IMG/VR virus record: IMGVR_UViG_3300022858_000223
Location: 1-36,950 of that record
Reading direction: 5' to 3' (one strand)
Length of the DNA: 36,950 nucleotides
Origin: a virus
Lineage: Duplodnaviria > Caudoviricetes
Positions 595 through 36,850 of the stretch are shown one piece after another; within the stretch, counting starts at the first letter, position 1; each line of letters opens with the position of its first letter. The notes under the pieces are model-generated. The model saw only the letters and a program-made list of their open reading frames with translations, did no database searches and had not been told where the DNA came from. A program made the position numbers and the translations under genes.

Positions 595-681
595 TTAATC
601 CTTAATCTTTAAGTAAATTATTATCCAGACTGGTAGTAGCATAATCGCCACTCCAATTATTGTTATTATTGTTTGTTGCAT
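595..681 (-). CDS. 28-aa single-TM peptide (MQQTIITIIGVAIMLLPVWIIIYLKIKD)
   Basis: Manual translation; hydrophobic core; ends 4 nt before the next ATG. Confidence 0.6.
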   Translation of the reverse strand: MQQTIITIIGVAIMLLPVWIIIYLKIKD

Positions 682-735
682 TATCTCTTATTAATTATTT
701 ACTTAAATCTAATGGGGTGCTTTGCCTCGTCCACC

Positions 736-808
736 AACTACCCAGCGAGGCTAAGAGACACATAATGTGTTTCGTTCCTGCGAACTCATCAGTCTTAGAC
801 GGGTAGCC
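736..808 (-). ncRNA. Hammerhead ribozyme, type I (core 751..798)
   Basis: Minus strand reads CUAAGA-CUGAUGA-GUUC(GCAG)GAAC-GAA-ACACA(UUA)UGUGU-C-UCUUAG: full consensus core with three perfect stems. Cleavage is predicted after GUC, between 757 and 756. Stem I extends via GGCUACCC/GGGUAGUU. Confidence 0.95.
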
Positions 809-860
809 TAACGTTCCTATTCACAACACCCCTAATAGGACTCAGATTTCAATAAACAAC

Positions 861-975
861 TAATCTCAACTCGCTAGAGGCTACCACACAATGTGTGGTT
901 CTAAGTGGAAGGAGGTGAATCCTTGTTAGGAGGTTTAGTCCTTTAAAGAACAATTCCTATAACGAGTTGGGGTTA
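861..975 (-). ncRNA. Putative structured RNA with two CCUCCU (anti-SD-like) motifs
   Basis: Closing stem 867..876 with 960..969; internal hairpins at 883..899, 909..924 and 928..942; no sizeable ORF. Strand assumed from operon direction. Confidence 0.55.
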
Positions 976-1060
976 ATTACTGTCCTAGGGAAAGGTTTTT
1001 ATTCGCCTTCCCCCCACAGACATTTCCCTCATAATGAGTATTTAAACCTATTTATGGGTT

Positions 1061-1237
1061 TTAATTAGACCAAGACCCAGACCGAGACCCAGACCAAGAC
1101 CCAGACCGAGACCCAGACCGAGACCGAGACCAAGACTGAGACCAAGACCGAGACCCAGACCCAGACCAAGACCAAGACCGAGACCCAGACCGAGACCCAG
1201 ACCAAGGTGATAAACTATAAGTATTAATCAAAAACAT
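1061..1237 (-). CDS. 58-aa (W/R/G)-Ser dipeptide-repeat peptide, RS-domain-like
   Basis: Manual translation MFLINTYSLSP-WSGSRSGSRSWSWSGSGSRSWSQSWSRSRSGSRSGSWSGSRSGSWS-N. ATG lies 3 nt after the upstream stop; below the ORF-track length cutoff. Confidence 0.75.
   Translation of the reverse strand: MFLINTYSLSPWSGSRSGSRSWSWSGSGSRSWSQSWSRSRSGSRSGSWSGSRSGSWSN
1067..1204. repeat. 23 tandem hexamers (minus strand NGG-TCT, one CAG-TCT)
   Basis: Directly counted: 7 W, 8 G, 7 R and 1 Q codon, each followed by TCT. Confidence 0.95.
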
Positions 1238-1240
1238 ATC

Positions 1241-1552
1241 TTACCATTTTAATTTATAAAATGATTCAATAGCTTGACGCATTACATAACAATTTTTTGG
1301 AAGTTTTTGCTTATCATCTGCTGCTTTAGCATCATATTGTCCAGTTTCAAATACTACACTAGCATCTTCTAATTCAATGTAAGTACCATTAATTGATTTA
1401 ACTTTTCCGTGATAAATGTATCTAGCACATTGAAAAAGATAAGTTTCTCCAATCAAATCTTCTAAATTATTTATCTCTTTTACTTGGATTTCAGACCCAA
1501 GTTGGTCTTTGATTTTTTCGAGTGTTTCATCACTCACTTCGATTGTTGGCAT
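1241..1552 (-). CDS. Sm/LSm-like (SH3-type small beta-barrel) protein
   Basis: Sm1-like pattern LEDLIGETYLF...YHGKVKSINGTYIELEDA and Sm2-like CYVMRQAIESF. Confidence 0.6.
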   Translation of the reverse strand: MPTIEVSDETLEKIKDQLGSEIQVKEINNLEDLIGETYLFQCARYIYHGKVKSINGTYIELEDASVVFETGQYDAKAADDKQKLPKNCYVMRQAIESFYKLKW

Positions 1553-2349: not shown

Positions 2350-3525
2350 TTATTTATTATATATCTCTATGTCAAACGATACTTTATTATCTAAACTCTT
2401 TTTAACATCTTCATCAATAGTTCCCTTAACTATTAGTGATAGGTAGACGTTCTTCTTTAAGTGGTTGGCTCTTAAAATTCTACCTTTCATTTGTTTATAG
2501 TTTTTAAAACTGAAGTCGTATGAGTAAAACACCATTAATGGGTATGACCATATCTTATCATTCCCCTCTGAACAAGCGGCGTTCATTAAAAGTATACTTT
2601 CTTCTTTTGCATTCTCTCTTATAGATATTTCATTTTTATTCTTTGTCTCACCATTTATTATGGTACCACCTATTTCTTTTTGTATTGTTTCAAGTTCAGC
2701 ATTATATCTACAAACAACTATTACTTTTTTGTGTTCTTTGCAGATGTCTTTGAGTCGTTCGAGTTTTTCACTTTTATAATATTTTGTATCTGTATATCCG
2801 TCTCCCTTCCTTGTTCCTCCACAGACTTGATGAATAGCTGTCCACTTGACGATATGATTGGTTTCTTCAGACTTGATAACATTGATAGCTCTTCGCTGGT
2901 CAACTGTAAGTCCGAAGTATTCTGTTTGGTAGATTTGTTCGGGGACATCGACGCAGTCTTGGAGTTTGACGGTGTTTCCGATGGTGGCAACGAGCTTTGC
3001 GATTTGGGGTTCGATTCCTTTTTTGACCATAGGGATATAACGAGAACCCATACGCACATTAGTAAAGTAGCTATCAAAAAACTTTCTATAGTTCCAGTTA
3101 TAACCAAGGATACGAGCAAGGCAGTAAATATTAAATGGAGTACTAAGATAAGGAGTAGCAGTTAGAAGGTAAATATATTGTGGGTTGTGTTTTTTGACAT
3201 ATTTTATTAATGATTTATGCATCTGACTTTTGATGCCTGAGAAGTAATGTGCTTCGTCTATTATTAGGCAGTTAACTTTTCTATAATCTTTCCAGTCTTT
3301 TCTAAATTCCTCTTTACTAACTACACTTATGAAACCACCTGTCTGTTCAATCCATTGTTCTTTAATGCTCTTAGGACATACTACAATTATATCTAATTCA
3401 TCAGAAGAATTTTTATGAGCCAATCGTATCGCTGCAAGTGTCTTGCCTGTTCCACATTCCCACGCCAGTAAATGTTTATCTGGGGCGAGGTCTACGAGTT
3501 GTTGTTGATGTTTGTAGAGTTTCAT
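2350..3525 (-). CDS. SF2 SNF2-like helicase/ATPase
   Basis: Q-motif LYKHQ, Walker A GTGKT, DEAH, motif III TAT and motif VI QMKGRILR. Confidence 0.9.
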   Translation of the reverse strand: MKLYKHQQQLVDLAPDKHLLAWECGTGKTLAAIRLAHKNSSDELDIIVVCPKSIKEQWIEQTGGFISVVSKEEFRKDWKDYRKVNCLIIDEAHYFSGIKSQMHKSLIKYVKKHNPQYIYLLTATPYLSTPFNIYCLARILGYNWNYRKFFDSYFTNVRMGSRYIPMVKKGIEPQIAKLVATIGNTVKLQDCVDVPEQIYQTEYFGLTVDQRRAINVIKSEETNHIVKWTAIHQVCGGTRKGDGYTDTKYYKSEKLERLKDICKEHKKVIVVCRYNAELETIQKEIGGTIINGETKNKNEISIRENAKEESILLMNAACSEGNDKIWSYPLMVFYSYDFSFKNYKQMKGRILRANHLKKNVYLSLIVKGTIDEDVKKSLDNKVSFDIEIYNK

Positions 3526-5023: not shown

Positions 5024-5149
5024 TTATTTATATATTGCTATTAGTAAGGTTACCCAACTTGCTATTGCACAGACCAGCATAAATTGAAAGTCTAAGTTGC
5101 GGGACTTTATTGTTTGTAATTGTTTCCACGTTGTTTGGTACTTTTTCAT
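5024..5149 (-). CDS. 41-aa peptide with C-terminal TM helix
   Basis: Manual translation ...FQFMLVCAIASWVTLLIAIYK; tight gene packing. Confidence 0.5.
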   Translation of the reverse strand: MKKYQTTWKQLQTIKSRNLDFQFMLVCAIASWVTLLIAIYK

Positions 5150-5427: not shown

Positions 5428-5835
5428 CTATAATAGCTTCTTCTGTTTAGATTGACTTAGACGTGCCTTTATTATGTTTATATATTCTTCTTCTCGTTCT
5501 ATTAGTATGAAGTCCCGCCCTGTATTCTGACACGCTACTCCTGTTGTACCTGAACCCGCGAACGGATCGAGGACACATCCTGAGTCCTCAACATTACACG
5601 CCATACGGTGTTGAGTTCTACTACCTGCAAATATAAGGGCAGTACCCCCTGGTTTTAACACCCTTAGACATTCCTGCCAAATAGCTACACTAGGCACATC
5701 ATAGTCCCATTTCTTACCCATAAAGCTAAGACCATAGGGTGGGTCAGTTATTATGGTGTCGACAGAGTTGTCAGGTAGCTTATCTAATTGTATTATGCAG
5801 TCTCCGTGAATTACTTTATTTATTAGGTCTTTCAT
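5428..5835 (-). CDS. N6A/N4C DNA methyltransferase (beta class) with large internal deletion; possible pseudogene
   Basis: DPPY catalytic motif and VLDPFAGSGTTG SAM motif are both present, but only 135 aa; central region missing. Confidence 0.8.
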   Translation of the reverse strand: MKDLINKVIHGDCIIQLDKLPDNSVDTIITDPPYGLSFMGKKWDYDVPSVAIWQECLRVLKPGGTALIFAGSRTQHRMACNVEDSGCVLDPFAGSGTTGVACQNTGRDFILIEREEEYINIIKARLSQSKQKKLL

Positions 5836-6071: not shown

Positions 6072-7862
6072 TTAAAAGTTAATTTCATTAATATCTAATT
6101 CTTCTTGTTGTATATCTTCTATTACTGGAAAGACACAGTGACCACCTTTACCTGCAACAATTTTTAGTTTTACTTCACCTTCAAGAGACTTTATAGCATC
6201 ATCAATAGATTCTCTACTGACGATGTCCTTTAACTTATCTTTAATAGTTGTTTTATTTAACCCTGGTTCACTATTTACTATTTTAAACACCTCGTCTCTA
6301 GCTTTGTTAATTGGATCAAGCAACTCTGCACTCTCACCTAGAAACTCAAACTCTGTTCGTTCATCTTCCTCATTATATTTAATAGCTAAGTCAAATGCCC
6401 CAACCGATTCTCTCCTTCTACTTTTTTCGTTGCTTACTGTCATCGCTAGATACTTCTTGCCGAATGGAGATATTAGTTTCTTACTTCTAACCTCAAGGTA
6501 GATCCCTGCGTTATCTGCTATAGCAGTTGCTCCTCTACCCCTACTTAGTCCAGTTGTGTCTTTACTTTTATTAACGTGATGTAGGAGTATCATTGTTACC
6601 TTAAACTCGTTGCAGATATCCATAAGCTCTATCATTACTGGAGTGATACCACTATTACTGTTTTCATCTGCACTATGTATCTTACTAAACGTATCAAATA
6701 CTACTAGGCTAATCTTATTTTCAGTAATATTTTTCTTTAGCCACGCAACTGAATTTTTATCACTTATATTCCACGATTTTTCACAACTTATAATACTATT
6801 ATTGTCAGGATGACACACGTTCTTAGCTCTAACAATACAATCGTCTTCTGTCATCTCCATATCTATTAATAAACAATTCGACTTTGTAACCTCAAACTTC
6901 CCAAGAAATGGATTGCCCATTGTTATATCATCAATCATTTTTAATATCAGTAGTGATTTACCACACCCGGTTGCACCGTGTATTATATTTAATGATTGTT
7001 TCTTTATTAAATCCTGAACTAAGAAAGGTTGAGGGTCTGGAGTCTTTAGCATTAAATCACTAAAAGTAATTGGTATATATTCATTAATTACCTTTTCTTC
7101 TTCTCTCAGTCTTGTTTTAACTACTGATTGGAAAATCCCTAGTAGTTCTTCTTCTCCCCAATCTTTACCTGGTTGTACTCCCATATTCCACGCCTGCATT
7201 GTGGTCCAGCCAGTTGTTCCCCACTCATTTTGAGGAGTTAGTGATAAGATAAACCCAGCCATACTCGCACCTTTTATATTCCTATCCTGACCCATTTTCA
7301 CACCTTTTAGTAATTCAATAGGATTTTTTCTATTTTTTATATCTTCCTTTATTGACCCAAAAATGTTGTAATCAAAGACTGGCATCTCTTGTTCTTCAAG
7401 AGAAATTGCCCAAGAATAGTCACCGTCTACTTCTCCATCTTCACTATGGTGTAGACTAGGAGGTGCTATAACATAGTTTCCTGTTGATCTAATCTCTCCA
7501 AAACCAGTAGGTGTACCAGTAGTTTTACCATCGTGCTTAAAGTAGTAATGGAATCCGTTACCAGTTTTTACGATTGGAGTGTGGGGTAAAATGATTCCAG
7601 TCTGCTTAAACTTTTCCATATCATCAACATCTAGTACTATTAGGTTTGATACTTCACCGCAAAGTATACCAATTTTAGCATCTGGCCAAGTTGTCCACCA
7701 TTTTTCTACTTCTTCCTTAGTAGGTAATCTATCTTGGTACTCTAGACAAGAAATAAGGTATGGTGCTTTTTTATCTTTTTTACCTTTACTATTTTTTCCT
7801 ATTGGTAATAAAGAAAATCCAAGTGATAGATAGTAAATAGCCCATTCTTTATTTGTTTTCAT
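6072..7862 (-). CDS. Bifunctional primase-polymerase fused to an AAA_25/RepA-type helicase, probable C-terminal wHTH
   Basis: PrimPol motifs LIVLDVD, TGNGFHYYF and GNYVIAPPS; Walker A GATGCGKS; Walker B LVVFDT; LLHHVNK; RGATA. Confidence 0.92.
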   Translation of the reverse strand: MKTNKEWAIYYLSLGFSLLPIGKNSKGKKDKKAPYLISCLEYQDRLPTKEEVEKWWTTWPDAKIGILCGEVSNLIVLDVDDMEKFKQTGIILPHTPIVKTGNGFHYYFKHDGKTTGTPTGFGEIRSTGNYVIAPPSLHHSEDGEVDGDYSWAISLEEQEMPVFDYNIFGSIKEDIKNRKNPIELLKGVKMGQDRNIKGASMAGFILSLTPQNEWGTTGWTTMQAWNMGVQPGKDWGEEELLGIFQSVVKTRLREEEKVINEYIPITFSDLMLKTPDPQPFLVQDLIKKQSLNIIHGATGCGKSLLILKMIDDITMGNPFLGKFEVTKSNCLLIDMEMTEDDCIVRAKNVCHPDNNSIISCEKSWNISDKNSVAWLKKNITENKISLVVFDTFSKIHSADENSNSGITPVMIELMDICNEFKVTMILLHHVNKSKDTTGLSRGRGATAIADNAGIYLEVRSKKLISPFGKKYLAMTVSNEKSRRRESVGAFDLAIKYNEEDERTEFEFLGESAELLDPINKARDEVFKIVNSEPGLNKTTIKDKLKDIVSRESIDDAIKSLEGEVKLKIVAGKGGHCVFPVIEDIQQEELDINEINF

Positions 7863-8616: not shown

Positions 8617-8865
8617 ATGCCTAATCCAAATGGAAATCCTAATTTAAAAGGAAATAAAAATAGTGGGAGAAAATCCACTAGGGTAGAGTTTGCTAAAAAC
8701 GAAGCTATAAGAAAAGCGTGGCTTAAAGTTAATGAAGAATTAGAAGCAAGTGGTGTGGAAAAGATAGCATTGCCATTGGCTTTAAAGGATATGGTGGTTA
8801 AGAAAGATGTAACAACAGACGGTGAAAGTTTAAATAAAGTTTTAGTTGAATTTATAAATGGATAA
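8617..8865 (+). CDS. terS: Putative terminase small subunit
   Basis: GNPN...GNKNSGRK N-terminus and KDVTTDGESL C-terminus; overlaps terL. Confidence 0.65.
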   Translation: MPNPNGNPNLKGNKNSGRKSTRVEFAKNEAIRKAWLKVNEELEASGVEKIALPLALKDMVVKKDVTTDGESLNKVLVEFING

Positions 8866-10108
8866 ACTAAAGACGATAAAAATTCCGATTGAATATAAGC
8901 CGTTATTTGATAAAAATTGGAGAGAAGCAGCAGTATACGGTGGTAGGTTTTCACTTAAATCACATACGGTGGCACGTTTTTTACTTATAAGGGCTAGAGA
9001 AACAAAGACTAGGGTAGCCTGTTTTAGAGAATTTCAGAACTCTATAGCTGAAAGTAGTCATCAATTATTAAAAGAACTGATTGATAAGTACGAATTAAAT
9101 GAGTTTGAGGTAACAAATAACTCAATTATTAATAGATTAAATGGCTCTGACTTTATATTTAAAGGGCTACGAAACAACGAACAGAGCGTAAAGTCAACTG
9201 AGGGAATAGATATAGCTTGGGTAGAAGAAGCTCAGACAGTATCTGATAACAGTATTGAGGTATTAACACCAACAGTTAGAAAACCTGGTTCAAAAATTAT
9301 ATATACATACAATAGATTATTAGAAAATGATCCAGTTCACGTTAGATTGGTCATAGATGGTAGACCTGATACCATAATAATCAATGAAAACTACGATATA
9401 GCCATCAAGCACAATATGATGCCTGATGTTATCTTAAAGGAAATTGAAGATGACAAGCGGAACAGACACGCTTTATATCAGCACAAGTGGATGGGCGAAC
9501 CTAACAGCCTTGAATTAAAGATTTTTAAGGAGTGGAAGCAGATTGATGATGTGCCACACGAAGCTAGACTGGAAGCTAGGTGGCTAGACTTTGGTTATTC
9601 GATTGATGAATCAGCTATTGGTTCACTATACTATCACAATAATGGCTGGATACTAAAAGAAGACTTATACAGGAAAGAGATGAGTAATAGGCAGTTAGCT
9701 AACTTTCTAAACGCTCTAGAGAAGCCACAGACGTTGATAATTGCCGATTCAGCTGAACCTAAGAGTATTGCAGAGCTACAGTCATATGGATTGAACGTAA
9801 CAGGCTGTAAGAAAGGCCAAGATTCAGTAGTAAATGGCATTCAACTGGTACAAGATCAACCAATATCAGTCACTAAGGGTAGTTTGAACATCTGGAAAGA
9901 GTATATGAACTACTTTTGGCTAGTAGATAATAAGGGAACAATCATAAATAAAGAAGACCCAGCGTGTGCTAATCATCATATGGCTGGCATAAGATACGTT
10001 TTACAGAACTTTGGCAGGATTAAACAAGAAGAAAGCTATTGGGACAGGATATACAGTGATGAACTACACCCCGAAACAGTAGTAAATCTTATTAATAAAG
10101 GTAGATGA
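8858..10108 (+). CDS. terL: Terminase large subunit, PBSX/SPP1-like
   Basis: YGGRFSLKS Walker A, WVEEA Walker B, TYN coupling motif; nuclease motifs LDFGY and ADSAEPKSI. Confidence 0.97.
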   Translation: MDKLKTIKIPIEYKPLFDKNWREAAVYGGRFSLKSHTVARFLLIRARETKTRVACFREFQNSIAESSHQLLKELIDKYELNEFEVTNNSIINRLNGSDFIFKGLRNNEQSVKSTEGIDIAWVEEAQTVSDNSIEVLTPTVRKPGSKIIYTYNRLLENDPVHVRLVIDGRPDTIIINENYDIAIKHNMMPDVILKEIEDDKRNRHALYQHKWMGEPNSLELKIFKEWKQIDDVPHEARLEARWLDFGYSIDESAIGSLYYHNNGWILKEDLYRKEMSNRQLANFLNALEKPQTLIIADSAEPKSIAELQSYGLNVTGCKKGQDSVVNGIQLVQDQPISVTKGSLNIWKEYMNYFWLVDNKGTIINKEDPACANHHMAGIRYVLQNFGRIKQEESYWDRIYSDELHPETVVNLINKGR

Positions 10109-14917: not shown

Positions 14918-15793
14918 ATGGCTATTGCAACAACTACTAATACCTATAATAAACACGATTACGTTTCCCGATTGAGGGCAAGAATCAATCTCCCTACTGT
15001 TTGGAGTGACGTATTGAAAGTTACTTATAGTGATGTTAGAACAATCGTTAATGGTTACTGGTCAACTGAACCAGCTACTTCTGCTAACACACGAGCATCT
15101 GCTTACACTTACTCTGATTACGAGACTGCTCAAGATACATTGACAATCAATCAATCAAGGGTTGTACCTGTATTTATCGATGAAGCAGATAGAGCCCAGC
15201 AAGATTACGTTAGTATGATGGACATTGCTACTTATCAAGGTAAAAAGATTTCTGAATATCTTGAAACAGTAACTTTGGCTGCAGCTATCGGTGGTACTAA
15301 CTTTGGTGTAACTGATCTAAGCAACACAGGTGCAGACGATACTACTAAGATTACAGTATCGGCATCAAACATTGATGACCTTATCCGTGCTATCAAACGT
15401 AAGATTTACGAGAACAACGGTGTTGATTTCGCTGTTGAACGTGGTATCTTCATTGTTTGGGGAGCTGAACACTTTGAACTACTTGAAGCCTTTACTCAAG
15501 CTAACGGATTCACAGAAGCTGACATTGCTTTAAAGAATGGCATTGCTGTTCAAAAAGCATTCCGATATATGGGAGTTGACCATTACTTATCAACTTCTCA
15601 CACTGCAAATCATCTATTTGCTGGAATCAAAAGGACAATGGAATTAGGTATTCTACGGAGTACATTCGGTAAAGTAAAACATATCGAAGATCCATCACAG
15701 ACTTCAGGACTTGGCATTGTCAGTCGTGTAGATTGGGGATTCAATCTACCTGCTTACAACTTAGAATTCATTATTGACGTGAACGTCAACTAA
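14918..15793 (+). CDS. Major capsid protein (HK97 fold, P22-coat-like)
   Basis: Position after scaffold; DTLTINQ...FIDEADRAQ pattern; 291 aa. Confidence 0.85.
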   Translation: MAIATTTNTYNKHDYVSRLRARINLPTVWSDVLKVTYSDVRTIVNGYWSTEPATSANTRASAYTYSDYETAQDTLTINQSRVVPVFIDEADRAQQDYVSMMDIATYQGKKISEYLETVTLAAAIGGTNFGVTDLSNTGADDTTKITVSASNIDDLIRAIKRKIYENNGVDFAVERGIFIVWGAEHFELLEAFTQANGFTEADIALKNGIAVQKAFRYMGVDHYLSTSHTANHLFAGIKRTMELGILRSTFGKVKHIEDPSQTSGLGIVSRVDWGFNLPAYNLEFIIDVNVN

Positions 15794-24897: not shown

Positions 24898-25698
24898 TTG
24901 ATAAATATGGTGAACTTGACTAAAAAAGAAAAACTAAAGAAACTTCTTGAGATAGTAAAATCAAATAAGTTGACCCCTGATAAACTTAAAGAGGTTTTAG
25001 CTTTACTTAATGACGGACTTTCAAAAGATGAGTTCATAAAGTCATTTAAGAAGATTACTGAACATACTTTAAGAACTGAGATTAAGTTGGTAGAAAAGGT
25101 TAATAAGGCTATAGCCGAGCTAAAAGGTGCTAATAGTACCTCCCTAGAAGCCACACAAGCCACTCTAAGGGCAGTAGCCGATAGGTTTGAAGTATCACTT
25201 AATAAAGCACTAAAAGACCAGGAGAACAGCTTAAATTTTATAAGAGATAAGGTAAGGAAGATTAAAGATGGTGAAGACGGGAAAAGTATAGAGGGTAAGC
25301 CAGGTAAAGATGCAGACGAAGAAAAAATAATTCAAAAAGTATTAGATAAGATACCAGACCACTCAATAAATGTTGAAAGTAATTCAGAAGATATTTTAAA
25401 ACTCAGAGAAGACCTTGCCAGAAACAAACGACTAAAAGGTGGTGGTACGTCAGCCGCAGGTGTTGCACAGACTTTCAAATATATTGCTCATACTGAAAAA
25501 CCTGTTGGACTTATTAATGGAACTAATAAAGTGTTTACAGTTGCTAAGAACATTTGGTGGGTGGCAGGGTTCACTATAAGCAACCAGCAGATAGCAGAAC
25601 TACCTAACTTTACTTATGTTGGTAAAACAATAACTTTTGCTAGTGCAATTCCAGCTGCGTATTCTACTAGAGATTTTGAAATTAAGTATATTGGCTAA
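24898..25698 (+). CDS. Hypothetical structural protein (likely start ATG 24907)
   Basis: Coiled coil, short GxDG collagen-like stretch and C-terminal GLINGTNKVFT beta domain. Confidence 0.6.
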   Translation: MINMVNLTKKEKLKKLLEIVKSNKLTPDKLKEVLALLNDGLSKDEFIKSFKKITEHTLRTEIKLVEKVNKAIAELKGANSTSLEATQATLRAVADRFEVSLNKALKDQENSLNFIRDKVRKIKDGEDGKSIEGKPGKDADEEKIIQKVLDKIPDHSINVESNSEDILKLREDLARNKRLKGGGTSAAGVAQTFKYIAHTEKPVGLINGTNKVFTVAKNIWWVAGFTISNQQIAELPNFTYVGKTITFASAIPAAYSTRDFEIKYIG

Positions 25699-25699
25699 A

Positions 25700-28600
25700 A
25701 TGAAAAAAGTATATCTCACAATTTTAACTTTTATACTATTGTTCGGTTTTGGGACAGTAGCTTTTGCTGATTGGCTTGATCCGTTTCTTTCTATCCAAGT
25801 AGGTTCTAGTCCTTCAGCTGATTACATATTACAAACAGATGGAACAGATAGCACTTGGATTCTTCCAAGTAGTATAGCCGGCATAGGTGACTGGATATTC
25901 AATGCTTTTGGTCAGTTAACTCCATCTTCTACTGTTGATGTTTTACTACCAGCTAACGCTACAATAACAGATAATCTATATGTAGGTGGCAATGGCACTT
26001 TTACTGATCTAAACTCTACTAATATAACAGTTGATACGCTTCTTACTCTTGACTATTTAACTCCTGGTTCAATTGCTTATATTGATGGAACTAATAGTTT
26101 GGCTGAGAATAATAGTGATTTATTCTATGATACTACCAATAATAGAATTGGGATTGGAACTAATAGCCCACAAACTAAACTAGAGGTTAGTAGTGGTACT
26201 ACTACTCTTGAATTACTTGATGTTAGTTCTAATAGGATTAAGAATGTTTCAGACCCAGTTGATAGTGGAGATGCTATTAACAAAGCATACTTTGACGCTA
26301 ATGCTACTGGTGGTCTTTCTTGGCAGGAAGCGGTTTTGGATATAATTGATTTTTCTGCTAGTGAACCTGCTGTCCCTACTTTAGGTGATAGATACATTTC
26401 TGACGCTACTTCAACTGCTCTTATTACGAGTCAATTTATGTATAATCAGTTTATTTACGAATGGGACACCATAAGTTGGGCTACTACTACACCAACAAAT
26501 CAGATGGCTTTGAAGAATATTGCTGATGGAATGTTTTATACTTTTAATTCTGATGATTGGAACTGGAATAGTTTAGGTAGTGCTTTTAGTCATAATTCTC
26601 TGCTTGGTTTGCAAGGTGGAGCTAGTAATGAATATTACCACCTTACTTTTAATGAATCAGAAAATATATTTATTAAGGGCGTTGATGATACTGATGATTT
26701 AACAGAAGGCTCTACTAATCTTTTTTATACTAACGCTAGAGTTGATACTAGAGTTCAAGGTCAAGATTATTCTGTTACAGGTGATTGGGACTTTGGACAA
26801 CCTTTAACAGTAGCAGACCCAACAAGTGATTTACACGCTGTTAATCTTGAAACAATGAATTTATATCTTTCAGGGTTAGCTTGGCAAGAGCCAGTAATAG
26901 ATAAAGACCTTTCAACTCCTCCTGGTAGTCCAACACTAGGGGATAGATATATTGTTGCTGGTAGTGCTTCTAATTGGTACAACACCTCTTGGAGCAATAG
27001 ACAGGAACTTGATTTAGCTAATGCAGACGTTACCAGTGCTATGACAGATTATCCAGTGCTTATTAAATTGACTGATAGTGGCAATTCAGTATTTGCAACT
27101 GCCCAGGCTAATGGTAATGATATTTTATTTACTGACGAAGATGGCAATAAACTAAAACACGAACTAGAAGCATTTAACGCTACTGATGAATTGATAGCTC
27201 ACGTTAAAGTTCCCTATCTAAATTCAACCTCTACTACTAATATTTATATGTATTATGGTAATGCTGTTGCTGGAAACCAACAGGAAGTTGCTGATACTTG
27301 GGATAGTGACTACGAGATGGTTTATCATTTTGGAGAAACAAGTGGTAGTGCAGATGACTCAACTGGAGTCTATGATGCTTCAAATACAAACGTATCTTAT
27401 AGTGCTACTGGTAAGATTGGTGATGCTTATGATTATAACGGTTCTAATTCTTATACCGATACAAACTATACAACAAGTTTATCAGCTAGTGATTTTACTA
27501 TTGAGGGTTGGTTTAAAGCAGATTCAACTACTGAAGTTTACGCAATCGCACAGGCACATACTGCTCCTGGTTATTCTTCTGACTTCATATTCTACTATAA
27601 TGGAGCTTCTAATCTTTGGTGGATGAGAAGTAAACAACTAGCTCAACCAGGAGGATTCACTGGTACTAATTGGAATTATATTGTAATGGCTTGGGATGAA
27701 ACTGCTGGTACTTATGAGGGCTTTGTAAATGGTGTTAGTGCTGGAACTTCACCAGTTGTTACTGGTTATGGTGGATTAAACTCAATTAAAATAGGAACTC
27801 GTGGAGATGCTGTATCTTCATTCTGGGGTGGTATTATGGATGAAGTTAAAATATCAGCTTCAATTAGAAGTGATGATTACATTTCAACTACTTTTAACAT
27901 ACAAGACGACCCAGCTAATTTTGTTACTTTCGGAGCTGAAGAAAGTATTTCGGCTAGTGGTGATTGGGCTGGACACGTTGATGACATTACAGAATGGGAT
28001 GGAGTAAGTTGGACTTTCGCTACTCCTGAATCTGGTTGGGCAACAATAGTTACTGATGAAGAATTACAATATACTTTTAATGGTAGTGTTTGGGCTTTAA
28101 GCTCTGGAGCTGTTTCAGCTCATAATGATACTACTGGAAAACAAGGTGGAAAAACTGGTGAGTATTTTCATTGGGAATCAGCCGATTATACGGAAGTTAC
28201 TAGTTGGCTTGATGATGTAGTTTTATCTGATGGTGGTTCTATGAATATTGGAACTGGTGATTTTAATACTACTGGCAATATAGCTACAGTAGAAGATATA
28301 ACAGCTGCAGGAATAATCCAAGGTGAAATGGTACTTGCTAATGGCTCTGGAAGTCACCCATCAGGAATAGGAGCATACCTTGAATTATATGTTTTAAGTG
28401 GAACAACTGCTCGTATTCTTCCTTATGATGGTTCTAGTTATTATGATTTGGCTATTGGAGATTGGAATGGTGGCGACCCAAATATTATGCTTAAAACTGG
28501 TGGTAAGGTAGGAATTAACGAAGGAAGTCCTGAAAAGAAACTACACGTCAATGGTGATGGATATTTTAAAGGTTCAGCCGACACCGAACAATTAACTGTT

Positions 28601-31600
28601 AGAGGTTACTTAAATCAAGCTGATGATATATTTGTTGTAGAAAAGAGTGATGGTACAGATTTATTTACAGTAGATAATCTTGGTAACGCTACTACCACAG
28701 GAGATTTAAAGATTGAAGGTAGTTTATCTATTGATGGCTCTGTTAATTTTGCTACTACAACTTGGACTTTTGATGATGGTAATAACGTAGGCTCATTAGA
28801 ACAAAAAGTTTTTGATTCTAATTCCGTTCCTTACAATGCAGATATTAAAAAAGGAATTGTAATGAGTGTGTTTGGACTTTTAGATTATGGCTATATTTGG
28901 AATACTACTGATGACCAAGGACCATTTATGGCTTTTGGGTCTGAAGATTCAGTTGAAGCAGGTATTATGGGCTATAACACAACTACATCTTCTTTCTCTT
29001 TTGCTAATGTTGTTGTTAAAAGTCCAGGGGTAACAGAAACAGAGCCACTTGAATATATAATATTTGCTTCTGAGGTTATAACTCAAATTGCTTCAACCTC
29101 TGATGCAATATTTGGTATGAATGTTGATGGAACAGATGCTACTTCCGAAGTTAGTTCACAACTAAGACTAAGCTCTACAACTGGTGCTTTACATTTTGAA
29201 AATGCTACTTTATATGACTTTACTGATGATATGCAAATAACTGGTAATGTTCATACTTTTGGCAGTTCTACTACAACTGGTTCTTTATATGTTGGTGCTG
29301 CACCTGGGGCAGGAGATGCTTCTGCTTTGAATTATGATGCTATATCTAGTTTTGGAGTACATACTAGAAACCTTTTTCTTTACGCAGACGACATAACTAC
29401 TGGAACTGCCTATTATAATATCTTTAGTGGTTCAGTAGACGCCCCAACTGATTCTGATGCTAATATGTTTATACTTAAAAATTCATTCACAATCGAAGGA
29501 ACTTCTAACTATACAGGAGCAGTAGTTGGTTTAGATAGTGATTTAACTCAAGAAAGTACTGGTAATGTTAATGCAATGTATGGAAGTAATATAGGAGTTG
29601 AACTTGCCAACACTGGTAATGTGGATACTGTTGTTGGTGGTGCATTTAGTATAGACAATGGTCCAGGTGATACTGATGGTGGTGGAGATATTAATGATGG
29701 TCAAATTGTTGTAGCAGATTATACTTCAAATGATTTAGCAGGTACAAATACCTCTATTAAATTGTTTAATACTGTTATAGACCACCAAAACGGAACTTCG
29801 ACTGATATCTATAATTTTTATTCTAATGCTTTATCATATACAGGTGGAAGGGTTGATAGACATTACGGATTTTATTCTCCAACTGGTTGGGGTACTAGCC
29901 AAGCTACAACATCTTACCCATTATATATTGCTGATGGTACTTCTTACTTAGGTGGTGATTTACTAGTTGGTGGTAACGCAACAACTACTGGTTATATGAG
30001 TTCTTCTCATTTTAAGATAGGGGATAATACTGTTTTGCAAGATGCAGGGACAGATAGTATCTTTGTTGGAATTCGAGCTGGACAAGATAACACTGGATGG
30101 AGTTGTGTAGCAGTAGGTGATGAGGCTTTATTTTCAAGCAATAGCGGTAATTACAATACAGCAGTTGGTCGTTACTCTATGAGAACAAACGATGATGGTA
30201 CTAGGAATACAGCAGATGGCTATCGTTCACTCTATGCAAATATTACTGGTGATGAGAACACAGCAGGTGGTTATCAGGCTCTAACAAAAAGTATAGGTAA
30301 TTTTAATACTTCCTATGGTAGTCAGTCTATTACTCAAAATACTTCTGGAGATTATAACACTGCGGTTGGGTCAATTACTTTTTTAAATAACTTAACTGGT
30401 TCAGGCAATGTAGGGCTTGGTTATTACGCTGGTGCTTATGAAACAGGCTCTAATTCTTTTTATGTAAATAATCAAGATAGAACTGATACTGCTGGAGATA
30501 AAACAAAATCTTTATTATATGGTACATTTGCAGTTGATTCAGCAGACCAACAATTGACAGTTAATGGAAATCTTAATGTTACTGGTAACTCAACTACAAC
30601 TGATTCATTTTATGTTGGTGGGGATTTAGAGGTTGGCGATGATGCTACCATAACTAATAAGCTATATGTTGGCAATCATAAGATTGAATCAGATGCTACT
30701 CTCTCTGCCTTAGCAGTTCAAGGCCAAACTTCTGGACAACCTACATATTTTGCTGTTGGCAATAAAGATGACGACGGAACAGACTACGCTGGACTTGTAG
30801 TGTCTGGAAGAAACGCCTTTACTGATATAGCTAATCGTGAAGTACTTATAATGCAATGGAATACTGGTGGCAAGTATGATATTAATACTTTTGCTGCTGG
30901 TACAGGAACAGCTAGAGATTTAGATATTTATGCAGGTAGTGGCAATGGTGGGCAATTATATTTAGAAGCCGGTGGTGATGTTAGAATCCCAAACTTATAT
31001 TCTACTTCAACTTCAATGACTAATGCTACAACTACTGGCACAATGTCTGCTACAACTATCGAAGTTAATGACGATTACATAACTGACTTTACAGGAACAA
31101 ATCTCTCAGTTACTGCTGGTGTTTTAAATGTTTCTGGAATCAGTAGTGGAAATCCATTTGACCAATGGCTTGATACTACTTCAACAGTTCAATTTGCAAC
31201 TACAACAATAAGTGGAATATTATCATTAAATGATGGTGGTAATTCTACTTATGTTGGTGAATTTGCAGGTGTGGTTGATGACAGAACTGATAATAGAAAC
31301 GTAGGTATGGGAACATATGCTTTGTGGAGAAACACATCAGGTTATCAAAATACAGCAATAGGTCATAGTGCTGGTTCTTCTATCACAGAAGGGTATGGTA
31401 ATGCTACTTTAGGTTATCAGTCAGGAAATTCTCTCTCAACAGGAGATTATAATACACTTATTGGCACTGGTTCAGGGTCAGGTATTGTAGGTGGAAATAA
31501 TAACACAACATTAGGATATAATTCAGGAGATAAAATTACTTCAGGACTTGGAAATACAACTTTGGGTAATAATTCTGGAGACAATATTACTACTGGTGAT

Positions 31601-32995
31601 TATAATATAACTATTGGTACTGTATCTGATGTAGCTAGTGCCACAGCAGATAACCAAATGAATATTGGTAATGTAATTTTTGGTACAAGTATTAATGGGG
31701 CAATAGGAACTGGCAATGTAGGAATAGGAACAGATGCTCCAGGTGCTTTATTAGATGTAAGAGGTGATGCGATTTTTAATGAAGCTGGAGATAATTATGA
31801 TTTTAGGGTGGAAGGATTAACTAATCCAAATATGATAACCATAGATGCATCACAAGATAAAATTTTAATAGGCTCACCAACAAGGACTTCTAATAATAAT
31901 GCAATAATGTTATTTAATACAGTCGAAGACGATTTAATTTCAGCACACCTCTCAAATGTGGAGGGAATAATAGGACACTTCGGAGGAAATGATTTTGGAT
32001 TTTCTGCAAATATAAAACCATCAACAGATGCCCAAATAAGAGCGGGTTATGCAGGTTCAAAAATTGAATCAGGAATTGAATTAATTAAACTAAGCACTAT
32101 GAATACAGCAGGAACTATAACAGAAAGAATGAGGGTTCATACCAACGGCAATGTAGGAATAGGAACAGCTAGTCCTAATGTTACTTTAGATGTTGTGGGA
32201 ACAGCAGCTAATGGAGATGATAAATTCGATATGATGTTAGATTCTCAAACTAATGATGGATTAAGTGGAGGAATGATGCTACGAGGTTTTCTACCTAGAC
32301 TTGCTTTTGATGACCAATCAACTGGAGCTAATTGGATGGATATGCGTATGGATGGTAATGACCTTATTTTCGGAGGTGGTGATAATACAGATATATTTTC
32401 AAGAACTGTTGATAATATTTTATTTTTATCATCTGATACTGGAAATGTAGGGCTTGGAGTAATTAATCCTACAAAGACTTTACAATTAGGAGCAAGTGAT
32501 GATGTTTGGATAACAGATGGTTCTATTTGTGTAGAAAATTCTGGTGGAACTAATTGTGCTGGTTCAACAGATGGTGTAGTTTACGCTGATGACTTTGTAG
32601 AACATTCAAGACCAATACCAGAAGGTGATGCTTTAAGTGTAATTATGAATATGAAGAATAAAGAAGATGGCACACTAGACCATAAGAGTTTTCCTAGTTA
32701 TGTTTCAAATGAAGTTTCTTGGGAAGATACTTACGAATATAAGTATGATGAAAAAGGAGCAACTACTACTGAAACTTTAATTAAGGAGTCTGGAAGCAAA
32801 GTAAATGAGGGTGTTTCTCTTTCAAGTCAGATTAAATATTTGATTAAAGCTGTACAAGAACTATTTACTAAAGTCCAGTTGGCTCTTGGTTGGAATCAAG
32901 ATAATGAAGACAGGATTGAATTGTTAGAAAAAGAGAATGAAGCTCTAAAGACTCGTTTAGATAAATTAGAACTAACTAATGAATTAAGTAAATAG
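25700..32995 (+). CDS. Giant (2431 aa) fibre/adhesin: signal peptide, DUF2793-like repeats, DUF2341 + LamG, NTAxG beta-roll repeats, C-terminal S74-like chaperone/coiled coil
   Basis: Start moved to ATG 25700 (MKKVYLTILTFILLFGFGTVAFA-DW). Motifs: PTLGDRYIV; GNDILFTD...IYMYYGN; FTIEGWFK...GIMDEVKI; GNVGIGT repeats; LIKAVQEL. Confidence 0.85.
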   Translation: MKKVYLTILTFILLFGFGTVAFADWLDPFLSIQVGSSPSADYILQTDGTDSTWILPSSIAGIGDWIFNAFGQLTPSSTVDVLLPANATITDNLYVGGNGTFTDLNSTNITVDTLLTLDYLTPGSIAYIDGTNSLAENNSDLFYDTTNNRIGIGTNSPQTKLEVSSGTTTLELLDVSSNRIKNVSDPVDSGDAINKAYFDANATGGLSWQEAVLDIIDFSASEPAVPTLGDRYISDATSTALITSQFMYNQFIYEWDTISWATTTPTNQMALKNIADGMFYTFNSDDWNWNSLGSAFSHNSLLGLQGGASNEYYHLTFNESENIFIKGVDDTDDLTEGSTNLFYTNARVDTRVQGQDYSVTGDWDFGQPLTVADPTSDLHAVNLETMNLYLSGLAWQEPVIDKDLSTPPGSPTLGDRYIVAGSASNWYNTSWSNRQELDLANADVTSAMTDYPVLIKLTDSGNSVFATAQANGNDILFTDEDGNKLKHELEAFNATDELIAHVKVPYLNSTSTTNIYMYYGNAVAGNQQEVADTWDSDYEMVYHFGETSGSADDSTGVYDASNTNVSYSATGKIGDAYDYNGSNSYTDTNYTTSLSASDFTIEGWFKADSTTEVYAIAQAHTAPGYSSDFIFYYNGASNLWWMRSKQLAQPGGFTGTNWNYIVMAWDETAGTYEGFVNGVSAGTSPVVTGYGGLNSIKIGTRGDAVSSFWGGIMDEVKISASIRSDDYISTTFNIQDDPANFVTFGAEESISASGDWAGHVDDITEWDGVSWTFATPESGWATIVTDEELQYTFNGSVWALSSGAVSAHNDTTGKQGGKTGEYFHWESADYTEVTSWLDDVVLSDGGSMNIGTGDFNTTGNIATVEDITAAGIIQGEMVLANGSGSHPSGIGAYLELYVLSGTTARILPYDGSSYYDLAIGDWNGGDPNIMLKTGGKVGINEGSPEKKLHVNGDGYFKGSADTEQLTVRGYLNQADDIFVVEKSDGTDLFTVDNLGNATTTGDLKIEGSLSIDGSVNFATTTWTFDDGNNVGSLEQKVFDSNSVPYNADIKKGIVMSVFGLLDYGYIWNTTDDQGPFMAFGSEDSVEAGIMGYNTTTSSFSFANVVVKSPGVTETEPLEYIIFASEVITQIASTSDAIFGMNVDGTDATSEVSSQLRLSSTTGALHFENATLYDFTDDMQITGNVHTFGSSTTTGSLYVGAAPGAGDASALNYDAISSFGVHTRNLFLYADDITTGTAYYNIFSGSVDAPTDSDANMFILKNSFTIEGTSNYTGAVVGLDSDLTQESTGNVNAMYGSNIGVELANTGNVDTVVGGAFSIDNGPGDTDGGGDINDGQIVVADYTSNDLAGTNTSIKLFNTVIDHQNGTSTDIYNFYSNALSYTGGRVDRHYGFYSPTGWGTSQATTSYPLYIADGTSYLGGDLLVGGNATTTGYMSSSHFKIGDNTVLQDAGTDSIFVGIRAGQDNTGWSCVAVGDEALFSSNSGNYNTAVGRYSMRTNDDGTRNTADGYRSLYANITGDENTAGGYQALTKSIGNFNTSYGSQSITQNTSGDYNTAVGSITFLNNLTGSGNVGLGYYAGAYETGSNSFYVNNQDRTDTAGDKTKSLLYGTFAVDSADQQLTVNGNLNVTGNSTTTDSFYVGGDLEVGDDATITNKLYVGNHKIESDATLSALAVQGQTSGQPTYFAVGNKDDDGTDYAGLVVSGRNAFTDIANREVLIMQWNTGGKYDINTFAAGTGTARDLDIYAGSGNGGQLYLEAGGDVRIPNLYSTSTSMTNATTTGTMSATTIEVNDDYITDFTGTNLSVTAGVLNVSGISSGNPFDQWLDTTSTVQFATTTISGILSLNDGGNSTYVGEFAGVVDDRTDNRNVGMGTYALWRNTSGYQNTAIGHSAGSSITEGYGNATLGYQSGNSLSTGDYNTLIGTGSGSGIVGGNNNTTLGYNSGDKITSGLGNTTLGNNSGDNITTGDYNITIGTVSDVASATADNQMNIGNVIFGTSINGAIGTGNVGIGTDAPGALLDVRGDAIFNEAGDNYDFRVEGLTNPNMITIDASQDKILIGSPTRTSNNNAIMLFNTVEDDLISAHLSNVEGIIGHFGGNDFGFSANIKPSTDAQIRAGYAGSKIESGIELIKLSTMNTAGTITERMRVHTNGNVGIGTASPNVTLDVVGTAANGDDKFDMMLDSQTNDGLSGGMMLRGFLPRLAFDDQSTGANWMDMRMDGNDLIFGGGDNTDIFSRTVDNILFLSSDTGNVGLGVINPTKTLQLGASDDVWITDGSICVENSGGTNCAGSTDGVVYADDFVEHSRPIPEGDALSVIMNMKNKEDGTLDHKSFPSYVSNEVSWEDTYEYKYDEKGATTTETLIKESGSKVNEGVSLSSQIKYLIKAVQELFTKVQLALGWNQDNEDRIELLEKENEALKTRLDKLELTNELSK

Positions 32996-36121: not shown

Positions 36122-36207
36122 AGGAATAATTTATAGAATAAATATATTAAACTAAGGTCTGCTATTACCCCAGCTACTATTAAAAAGTTTAGAAATCTAT
36201 CTGTCAT
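36115..36207 (-). CDS. 30-aa hydrophobic peptide
   Basis: MTDRFLNFLIVAGVIADLSLIYLFYKLFLC; overlaps both neighbours. Confidence 0.5.
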   Translation of the reverse strand: MTDRFLNFLIVAGVIADLSLIYLFYKLFLC

Positions 36208-36533
36208 AATTGTTTCTTTAGCCGTTCAGCACTATCTAAAATAAAATTAGCCATTGCGTGCATTCCAGCTTTGAAATTAACAGAATAATAATTATCGTTT
36301 ACTCCTTTTTTTTCTTTTTCGTGAATTATTTCCTCAAACTCCTCAATCAGTAGGAGGGCAAGTTCCTTTTGGGAGGTGATAAGTTTCTTTTCAGCTTCTA
36401 TTAAACACCTTCTCAAAGTTTCTTCACACCCTCTACTTTCATACCAAACTTCAGCAGCTATTTCATCTTGAATAATCTTATGTATTTTCTCAGCACTAAG
36501 TTGTATTTTTTCTGTGATGTTTAACATACTCAT
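36204..36533 (-). CDS. Hypothetical protein, paralog A
   Basis: Shares MLNITEKIQLSAE and LITSQKELA..IEEF with the next gene. Confidence 0.75.
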   Translation of the reverse strand: MSMLNITEKIQLSAEKIHKIIQDEIAAEVWYESRGCEETLRRCLIEAEKKLITSQKELALLLIEEFEEIIHEKEKKGVNDNYYSVNFKAGMHAMANFILDSAERLKKQL

Positions 36534-36850
36534 ACTTTTCCAGTTAATTTATTAACGATGCTATTTATTTCTTGGATTCGTTGGTTGTAGCCTTTTTTCC
36601 AACCGCTTCTGTGGGAATTAAGTTTAAAATGTCCTTTATCTTCCTCCCCAACAAACTCCTCAATAATAGAATTGGCAAGTTCCTTTTGGGAGGTGATGAG
36701 GAAGTCTTTAAAGTTTTTAGCTTCAAATTCTTCAAATTCTCTTGGAAAATCACCAATAACTTTATTATTTCTTAGACGATAAACTTCCATTGGAAATTCT
36801 TTATCAAAAGCCTCAGCACTAAGTTGTATTTTTTCTGTGATGTTTAACAT
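36530..36850 (-). CDS. Hypothetical protein, paralog B
   Basis: Same shared blocks; GWKKGYNQRIQEI motif. Confidence 0.75.
   Translation of the reverse strand: MLNITEKIQLSAEAFDKEFPMEVYRLRNNKVIGDFPREFEEFEAKNFKDFLITSQKELANSIIEEFVGEEDKGHFKLNSHRSGWKKGYNQRIQEINSIVNKLTGKV

Follow-up and report, generated by a model that had tools for sequence, protein, structure and literature searches.

We analysed a region of the virus record IMGVR_UViG_3300022858_000223, the whole of which (36,950 nt, from a tailed phage) is the window referred to below. Here, a leftward run of small early-type genes closes with a gene for a 103-aa Sm-like protein, an open reading frame (ORF) for a short peptide of X-Ser dipeptide units, a non-coding spacer holding a hammerhead ribozyme, and a 28-aa hydrophobic ORF (Table 1). 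An earlier reading of the sequence (the original prediction) had proposed that these form a single four-part ribonucleoprotein (RNP) cassette, and the parts themselves were recovered where it had placed them: the Sm and repeat ORFs with their 3-nt gap, the two CCUCCU motifs, the hammerhead and the small peptide past it. As a cassette, however, they did not hold together. Neither the hammerhead nor the CCUCCU RNA co-occurs with the gene pair at the homologous loci compared, and the region very probably comprises two separable units, an Sm–peptide gene pair and an independent hammerhead block.

The Sm-fold protein and its repeat peptide

The 103-aa protein is predicted to have the Sm fold, a short helix and a five-stranded, bent antiparallel sheet, as had been proposed. 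An AlphaFold2 (AF2) model built from 66 homologs (predicted local distance difference test score, pLDDT, of 89) contains a weak N-terminal helix (residues 8–21), a short helix (30–33) and bent strands spanning residues 37–99, laid out as an acidic N-terminal strand–helix segment (1–21, low confidence) and an Sm core (25–102). Every match listed by Foldseek against the PDB was an Sm/LSm-type chain (best E = 6.8 × 10−4), a VIA structure search recovered Sm/LSm chains at Z scores of 9.0–9.9 over 60–75 residues (top 50), and viral structure matches (BFVD) included DUF6948 proteins. No Pfam, PHROG or PDB sequence match named the family; the Pfam LSM and Hfq profiles matched neither the window protein nor any of the 66 aligned members at E ≤ 0.1, and a PDB sequence search with the Sm-family profile gave nothing meaningful. 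In all, 113 homologs were found, and 834 cluster representatives matched the Sm profile at E ≤ 0.001; two large repeat proteins among these matches (P0118 and P0194) were treated as false hits. Tandem two-domain Sm forms of 187–218 aa were also observed (P0121, P0125, P0141, P0152, P0161, P0163, P0190, P0239 and P0240).

Two subfamilies, A (that of this phage) and B, are related at a profile probability of 98%, and in both the N-terminal part carries a charge of about −6 (the window protein as a whole has an isoelectric point of 4.9 and a net charge of −5). The strand β2 glycine conserved in Sm, LSm and Hfq proteins (PMC3710371, available part) is invariant here (G49; 66 of 66 aligned rows and 55 of 55 subfamily-B rows). 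Across the Sm family, C42, R44 and E96 are fixed in 62 of 62 rows, Y45, T70, G71, D80, Q82 and W103 are kept in 58–62 of the 62, and the C-terminal residue is Trp in 61. Residues C42–Y45 fall in loop L2, which in Sm proteins faces the ring lumen (loop geometry, same part of PMC3710371), and T70–Q82 fall in loop L4.

The coupling of Sm gene and repeat ORF extends well beyond this phage. From 132 loci fetched (52 viral and the best 80 of 134 metagenomic), dropping ten that were cut inside the Sm gene and merging duplicates left 95 (36 of subfamily A, 56 of subfamily B and 3 of DUF6948); four of the A/B loci did not extend far enough for a verdict, and 88, this phage included, were informative. 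At 62 of these 88, an X-Ser ORF starts −4 to +22 nt from the Sm stop (−4 to +4 at 52 of the 62), and at 5 it lies farther off. The reverse search, with two DNA patterns for the repeat, returned at least 246 loci (225 distinct), 117 of them with at least 700 nt upstream; among the matches listed, an Sm homolog lies upstream of the repeat at 87 of the 117, downstream on the same strand at 8 more, and on the opposite strand at none. Gene neighbourhoods of this kind indicate a genuine two-gene phage module, and of the linkage originally expected at homologous loci it is that of repeat ORFs with the Sm gene that stands, whereas the hammerhead is not linked. Several X-Ser genes are often arrayed behind one Sm gene (loci L006 and L014 and several repeat loci). 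The only GenBank phage match, MW202825.1 (L247:1501–2200), has an Sm homolog and a first X-Ser ORF, both unannotated, and then a second X-Ser ORF. Stop read-through fusing the two products was considered and rejected: the genes are in frame here, but offsets of −4, −1 and +1 dominate elsewhere.

The peptide itself consists of an 11-residue leader and 23 X-Ser units (G8, W7, R7 and Q1), so that the count of 23 dipeptides in the original prediction holds, with 22 of the W/R/G-Ser type described and one Gln-Ser. It has a net charge of +7, a DNA unit of NGG-TCT and no Pfam hit, and AF2 gave no structure (pLDDT 50). Across the 62 coupled loci, the Ser codon is nearly uniform within each locus and changes between loci (dominant codon TCT at 20, TCG at 18, AGC at 11, TCA at 8 and AGT at 5), with about 20 changes needed on a quick Sm tree in which many forks are open; because the Ser codon differs from locus to locus but the residues are retained, selection acts on the peptide as protein. 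The X codons are NGG in 1,173 of 1,216 cases, although the Sm genes themselves most often encode Gly by GGA/GGT and Arg by AGA. Since W, G and R occur together in 50 of 52 arrays and AGG is mixed with CGG in 1 of 44, the first base of the X codon is not free: three residues are kept rather than four bases. Arrays are 25–101 aa long with W, R and G in near-random order (pair ratios 0.84–1.19), and a leader motif is present in 15 of 28 subfamily-A peptides versus 0 of 34 from subfamily B.

Targets of diversity-generating retroelements show adenine-specific variation. The repeat was rejected as such a target, the A of TCA or AGY Ser codons being invariant within arrays (TCA in 37 of 37 at L229; AGC in 42 of 42 at L017); a scan of 28 window proteins also detected no reverse transcriptase. 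As a separate observation, TCC is never the dominant Ser codon in the 62 coupled loci; TCC with NGG would create CCNGG palindromes, which may be avoided because they could serve restriction or methylation.

A counterpart exists around DUF6948 (PF22253), whose members have a similar predicted fold and a coupled alternating-repeat gene too, but with an acidic Gly-(Ser/Tyr/Asp) product (43 of 48 distinct loci); at some loci the Gly-X tract forms the N-terminal part of a longer protein. Neither the window protein nor five subfamily-B proteins matched DUF6948 (cut-off 27 bits), and three subfamily-C proteins scored 86–108 bits against it. The link between the two families rests on the fold and on an N-terminal segment common to some members, and the DUF6948 pair is a parallel module that follows this small/aromatic/charged design with a different chemistry. 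The partners of the three groups range from strongly basic to strongly acidic; co-variation of charge between core and partner was not found.

The hammerhead and the non-coding blocks

On the coding strand, positions 682–1060 hold no ORF of note. The spacer had been called hairpin-rich, a description that exceeds chance only moderately: the whole gives z = −3.4 (690–1065), but its sub-blocks are weaker (z = −1.6 for 681–886 and for 757–1060, and −0.45 for 887–1060, by an approximate dinucleotide shuffle); an isolated 805–745 piece does no better than shuffles (z = −0.6). The hammerhead (798–751) has the full core (CUGAnGA, GAAA and NUH) and three stems (I, 6 bp; II, 4 bp; III, 5 bp), all Watson–Crick, with stem I extending through an internal loop to 808–801/743–736. 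Its descriptor has a single match in the window and 0 in 40 shuffled windows. The Rfam model HH9 scores it at 20.8 bits (E = 0.02) versus a gathering score of 52, and at gathering Rfam finds nothing in the window.

Where 700 nt or more of downstream DNA was available, strict and relaxed descriptors found no hammerhead at the 61 other Sm loci, and among the matches listed none was found at 127 repeat loci. No Sm gene or repeat besides this phage's own lies near similar hammerheads (80 with flanks fetched), and Rfam on 40 Sm loci gave three tRNAs only, two of them 2–3 kb away and one in this phage. A pattern from the extended stem I matched this phage alone, apart from two chance matches in coding DNA, and two CCUCCU after the peptide occur in this phage only of 41 loci, with one CCUCCU in one other. 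In contigs from public runs, block 681–886 appears with both flanks unrelated (X13 and X22, of 868 and 1,119 nt), further contigs (X9) have the same loose ends, and a 239-nt contig (X17) spans 681–918 in the window arrangement. Other contigs likewise carry block 850–977 next to foreign flanks, there with 17 nt deleted at 911 so that a single CCUCCU is left; these foreign flanks were seen for up to 30 letters each, and an Sm gene farther along the contigs is possible. The lack of hammerheads at other Sm and repeat loci, together with the foreign flanks, thus shows that the ribozyme is independent of the Sm pair, and these contigs reveal the spacer as a mosaic. Base pairing is preserved in the variants at 729 and 843, and the changes at 713 and 850 affect unpaired edge positions. 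The palindrome at 883–899 resembles hammerhead stem III (758–770) in sequence.

The same hammerhead core and stem II were found in 104 viral stretches, 80 of which had flanks fetched; the 93 distinct similar hammerheads comprise 71 of type III, 19 of type I and 3 unclassified. A start codon lies within 60 nt of 64 of the 70 with enough downstream DNA, versus 27.5% of random points, and the corresponding distance in the window is 69 nt. Some of the contigs L053–L156 carry two hammerheads. In the available part of Perreault et al. 2011 (PMC3088659), the genes next to phage hammerheads vary in identity, and the ribozymes are proposed to cut long transcripts into shorter messages. A hammerhead in a phage intergenic region near a start codon is thus a known arrangement, and by analogy the one in the window is probably an unremarkable phage element for mRNA processing. 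For this phage there is also a longer assembly (L157, 4550–6309), which reaches about 1.7 kb beyond window position 1 and contains a tRNA-like element (5058–5127; Rfam 36.7 bits, missed by ARAGORN) followed by the hammerhead's AT-rich leader, with a paralog of the 28-aa gene at L157:5640–5735 (72.6% DNA identity over 113 nt), away from Sm genes. Such a combination of structured RNA and leader may be a unit that is exchanged repeatedly.

The spacer had also been read as an anti-Shine–Dalgarno (SD) RNA. SD-like words stand upstream of 2 of 40 window genes checked, so translation in this phage is largely SD-independent; given this, and the variant block that lost one CCUCCU, that role does not hold up. 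The AT-rich, SD-less starts suggest a host without SD pairing, such as Patescibacteria or Bacteroidota.

A scan for promoters and terminators gave 2 promoter-like sites (3.0 expected) and a coding strand without a terminator. The DNA of 595–1060 had no match in GenBank phages, and GTDB genomes gave a single weak partial match. The Cys-repeat protein beyond the 28-aa ORF belongs to no Pfam or PHROG family. Among relatives of its gene, Cys repeats are kept at L238 and L240, and at L241 a pentapeptide Asn-Ser-Gly repeat sits on a matching C-terminal region; the repeat type appears swappable on this C-terminal domain. Seven loci with such relatives have no common non-coding similarity, and a hammerhead was confirmed at 0 of the 5 checked (loose core-regex matches in three). 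Elsewhere in the window, adjacent small minus-strand ORFs at 36204–36533 and 36530–36850 have a near-identical N-terminal stretch and a common internal motif and are apparently a tandem paralog pair; a 135-aa DNA methyltransferase (5428–5835, minus strand) with two N6_N4_Mtase stretches near each other looks internally shortened; and a 2,452-aa protein (25637–32995, plus strand) that matches DUF2341 and, twice, DUF2793 is likely tail-associated.

Table 1 Positions of the features in the window.
Feature	Position	Strand	Remarks
Cys-Asn/Asp-Ser/Tyr/Phe tripeptide-repeat protein, 186 aa	30–590	−	Repeat, then conserved C-terminal domain
Hydrophobic ORF, 28 aa	595–681	−	Starts 69 nt past the ribozyme
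Movable hammerhead block	681–886	−	Enclosing helix ~849–825 with 720–705 (minimum free energy fold), ribozyme, AT-rich leader to next start codon
Type I hammerhead	751–798	−	Predicted cut after C757
Non-coding mosaic block	850–977	−	Two CCUCCU (933–928, 915–910); 17-nt palindrome (883–899)
Repeat peptide ORF, 58 aa	1061–1237	−	3 nt past the Sm ORF
Sm-fold protein, 103 aa	1241–1552	−	
SNF2-type helicase	2350–3525		
Primase-polymerase	6072–7862		
Terminase	8858–10108		
Major head protein	14918–15793		

Candidate functions of the gene pair

The reading that we prefer, tentatively and at somewhat less than even likelihood, is that an Sm ring with a low-complexity peptide tail supplied in trans condenses RNA, and that the hammerhead separately trims an early message. 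The gene geometry shows that the products of both genes are made together from one message. Sm cores would, as in their family, assemble into a ring, and the basic peptide could dock on the acidic N-terminal segment and the long L4 loop, perhaps via its short hydrophobic leader, which would leave the conserved Arg and Tyr of loop L2 exposed at the pore to nucleic acid. By analogy, Trp and Arg would be the stickers of a multivalent RNA–protein assembly in the infected cell, and Ser and Gly its spacers. The perfect core suggests that the hammerhead cleaves after C757, giving a downstream product with a 5′-OH and its own leader ahead of the 28-aa and Cys-repeat genes; the cyclic phosphate on the upstream message would be a by-product. 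Extended to a two-component phage RNP-granule machine, with an Sm ring and a rapidly tunable peptide in Ser-Trp/Arg/Gly and Gly-Tyr/Asp/Ser chemistries, the idea is conceivable by analogy but on balance unlikely. The two peptide chemistries resemble the RS and [G/S]Y[G/S] domains found in granule proteins of eukaryotes.

Several observations weigh against condensation of RNA by an Sm ring and its peptide. The L3 Asp found in Sm proteins is not conserved in register: with L3 at residues 55–57, as placed by the model strands rather than by residue-level superposition, position 55 is Asn in 45 and Thr in 16 of 62 rows, position 57 is Asp in 23 of 62, and subfamily B differs, so that a U-binding pocket in the modelled protein is putative. 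At 21 of the 88 Sm loci there is no repeat within 1.5 kb and, among the matches listed, no Sm gene was detected within ~900 nt of the repeat at 22 of 117 loci (4 with another repeat gene upstream, 18 with neither); the pairing is therefore not obligatory. A natural Sm–repeat fusion, as a split tail might predict, was not seen in 261 proteins or in a search of long proteins (225–2,000 aa), and the match between leader and subfamily may come from shared ancestry alone. The core profiles of the Sm family and DUF6948 are not significantly linked (4.6%), each of the three groups has a nearly neutral Sm core (mean −0.3, +1.3 and +1.5), and the acidic Gly-Asp/Tyr partner would seem to suit RNA condensation less well. 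For the ribozyme, the hammerhead fold lies 3 kcal/mol above the minimum free energy for 811–735, and a change at 785 in one low-depth X22 contig (depth 5.3) would break the first stem II pair.

Short Trp/Arg-rich peptides are often antibacterial, and the pair could instead encode an effector and its chaperone or antidote, in which an active peptide (membrane-active, ribosome- or nucleic-acid-binding, or fibril-forming) is kept soluble or harmless by the Sm-fold protein, whose RNA binding would be beside the point. We regard this as unlikely, though credible: the frequent amplification of peptide genes behind one Sm gene, canonical Sm pore residues that are not clearly kept, and a strict coupling that would give stoichiometric supply all speak for it, but the 18 of 117 listed repeat loci with neither an Sm gene nor another repeat would require an obligate antidote to sit elsewhere in the genome, and the acidic Gly-Tyr/Asp counterpart is unlike a membrane-active peptide. 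In both module types an unchanging small residue alternates strictly with the variable one, a pattern that would also fit a peptide that forms β-sheets of two-residue period (Ser face in, Trp/Arg out) or that sits protamine-like on phage DNA or RNA, with the Sm-fold protein nucleating, capping or merely co-regulated. The near-random W/R/G order, the wide range of array lengths and the Gly-X tracts N-terminal to longer proteins at some DUF6948 loci are consistent with such a role; it nevertheless leaves the consistent Sm-fold partner unexplained, AF2 returned no structure (weak evidence for such sequences), and we hold it to be distinctly unlikely.

That the hexamer repeat acts as RNA, its spaced GG pairs being the Sm-ring ligand in an autoregulatory loop and the peptide secondary, is improbable. 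The excess of NGG, given that Sm genes prefer GGA/GGT and AGA, is what would recommend it, but this is explained by tandem homogenisation from a single Trp codon, and Ser is kept across the TCN and AGY families, each array keeps one Arg codon (1 of 44 mixed) and the start codon lies in the X-Ser frame in coupled loci. We give very little credence to the four-part RNP, in which an anti-SD RNA, its 3′ end set by the hammerhead, would be loaded together with the peptide on the Sm ring. In its favour, the four parts lie side by side in one orientation, the predicted cut would put a cyclic phosphate on the Sm message, and two or more CCUCCU are rare in shuffles (0.7% of 20,000), with a 9-nt extension at 917–909, chosen after sight, rarer (0.14%). 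Set against this are the hammerhead's absence from other Sm loci (0 of 61) and listed repeat loci (0 of 127), the lack of Sm genes at other phages' hammerhead loci, two CCUCCU that are unique among 41 loci, SD-like sites at 2 of 40 genes, both non-coding blocks with foreign flanks (one without a CCUCCU), and the oligo-U that Lsm2–8 recognition requires.

Relation to known systems and implications

Eukaryotic Sm/LSm proteins and archaeal SmAPs (PDB 9dtr_r, 5vsu_G, 5mkl_A1 and 1i8f_E) have the same fold over residues 25–102 (root-mean-square deviation 1.5–3.6 Å), with the invariant β2 Gly and long L4 loop in common; the window protein differs in its low identity to them (5–21%) and its extra acidic N-terminal segment. 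Some eukaryotic Sm/LSm members carry basic dipeptide-repeat tails, whereas here the low-complexity part has its own gene and is built of Ser-X, not Arg-Gly. In SR proteins, an RS tract is joined to one or two RNA-recognition motif (RRM) domains. The window peptide has Arg-Ser in a disordered basic tract in common with these; it differs in that RS makes up only 7 of its 23 units, with Trp and Gly just as common, and in that it is a stand-alone phage micro-protein without an RRM.

Bacterial Hfq, in the available part of PMC5606850, combines an Sm core with a disordered stretch of low complexity, which may serve to tune RNA handling, as may be the case here, but its tail is in cis, the window protein has no sequence match to it, and the structure matches listed are to Sm/LSm chains with a long L4 rather than to Hfq. 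A previously described phage-borne Sm-fold protein has the fold in common, with no profile match, and the available part of its description mentions no repeat-peptide partner. The Lsm2–8 heteroheptamer reads a single-stranded oligo-U 3′ end with a cyclic phosphate via the C-terminal His of Lsm8 and Arg27 of Lsm3 (10.1101/2020.04.22.055376, available part). The present region differs in having a single Sm gene, with a C-terminal Trp rather than His, and the proposal that the Sm ring reads a cyclic phosphate is undercut by the predicted 5′ product, a paired stem III strand ending GUC (759–757) with no U run. Like the phage hammerheads in the available part of PMC3088659, that of the window has a canonical core in an intergenic region, but it is a single type I copy in a longer enclosing helix and scores below Rfam gathering.

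A full-text literature search, with most subscription journals outside its scope, found no paper on the Sm–repeat pair and none naming DUF6948, and the gene pair is apparently undescribed. It is very common in uncultured phages, with an estimated 160 and 230 viral stretches matching two narrow repeat patterns, and annotation often misses it, as for the Sm homolog of MW202825.1. If the less likely RNP-granule reading is true, the module would form a phage condensate that sorts or sequesters RNA during infection, with the ribozyme-trimmed message as a possible cis substrate. The pair itself offers a minimal two-gene test of whether dipeptide repeats of low complexity function with Sm rings outside eukaryotes.

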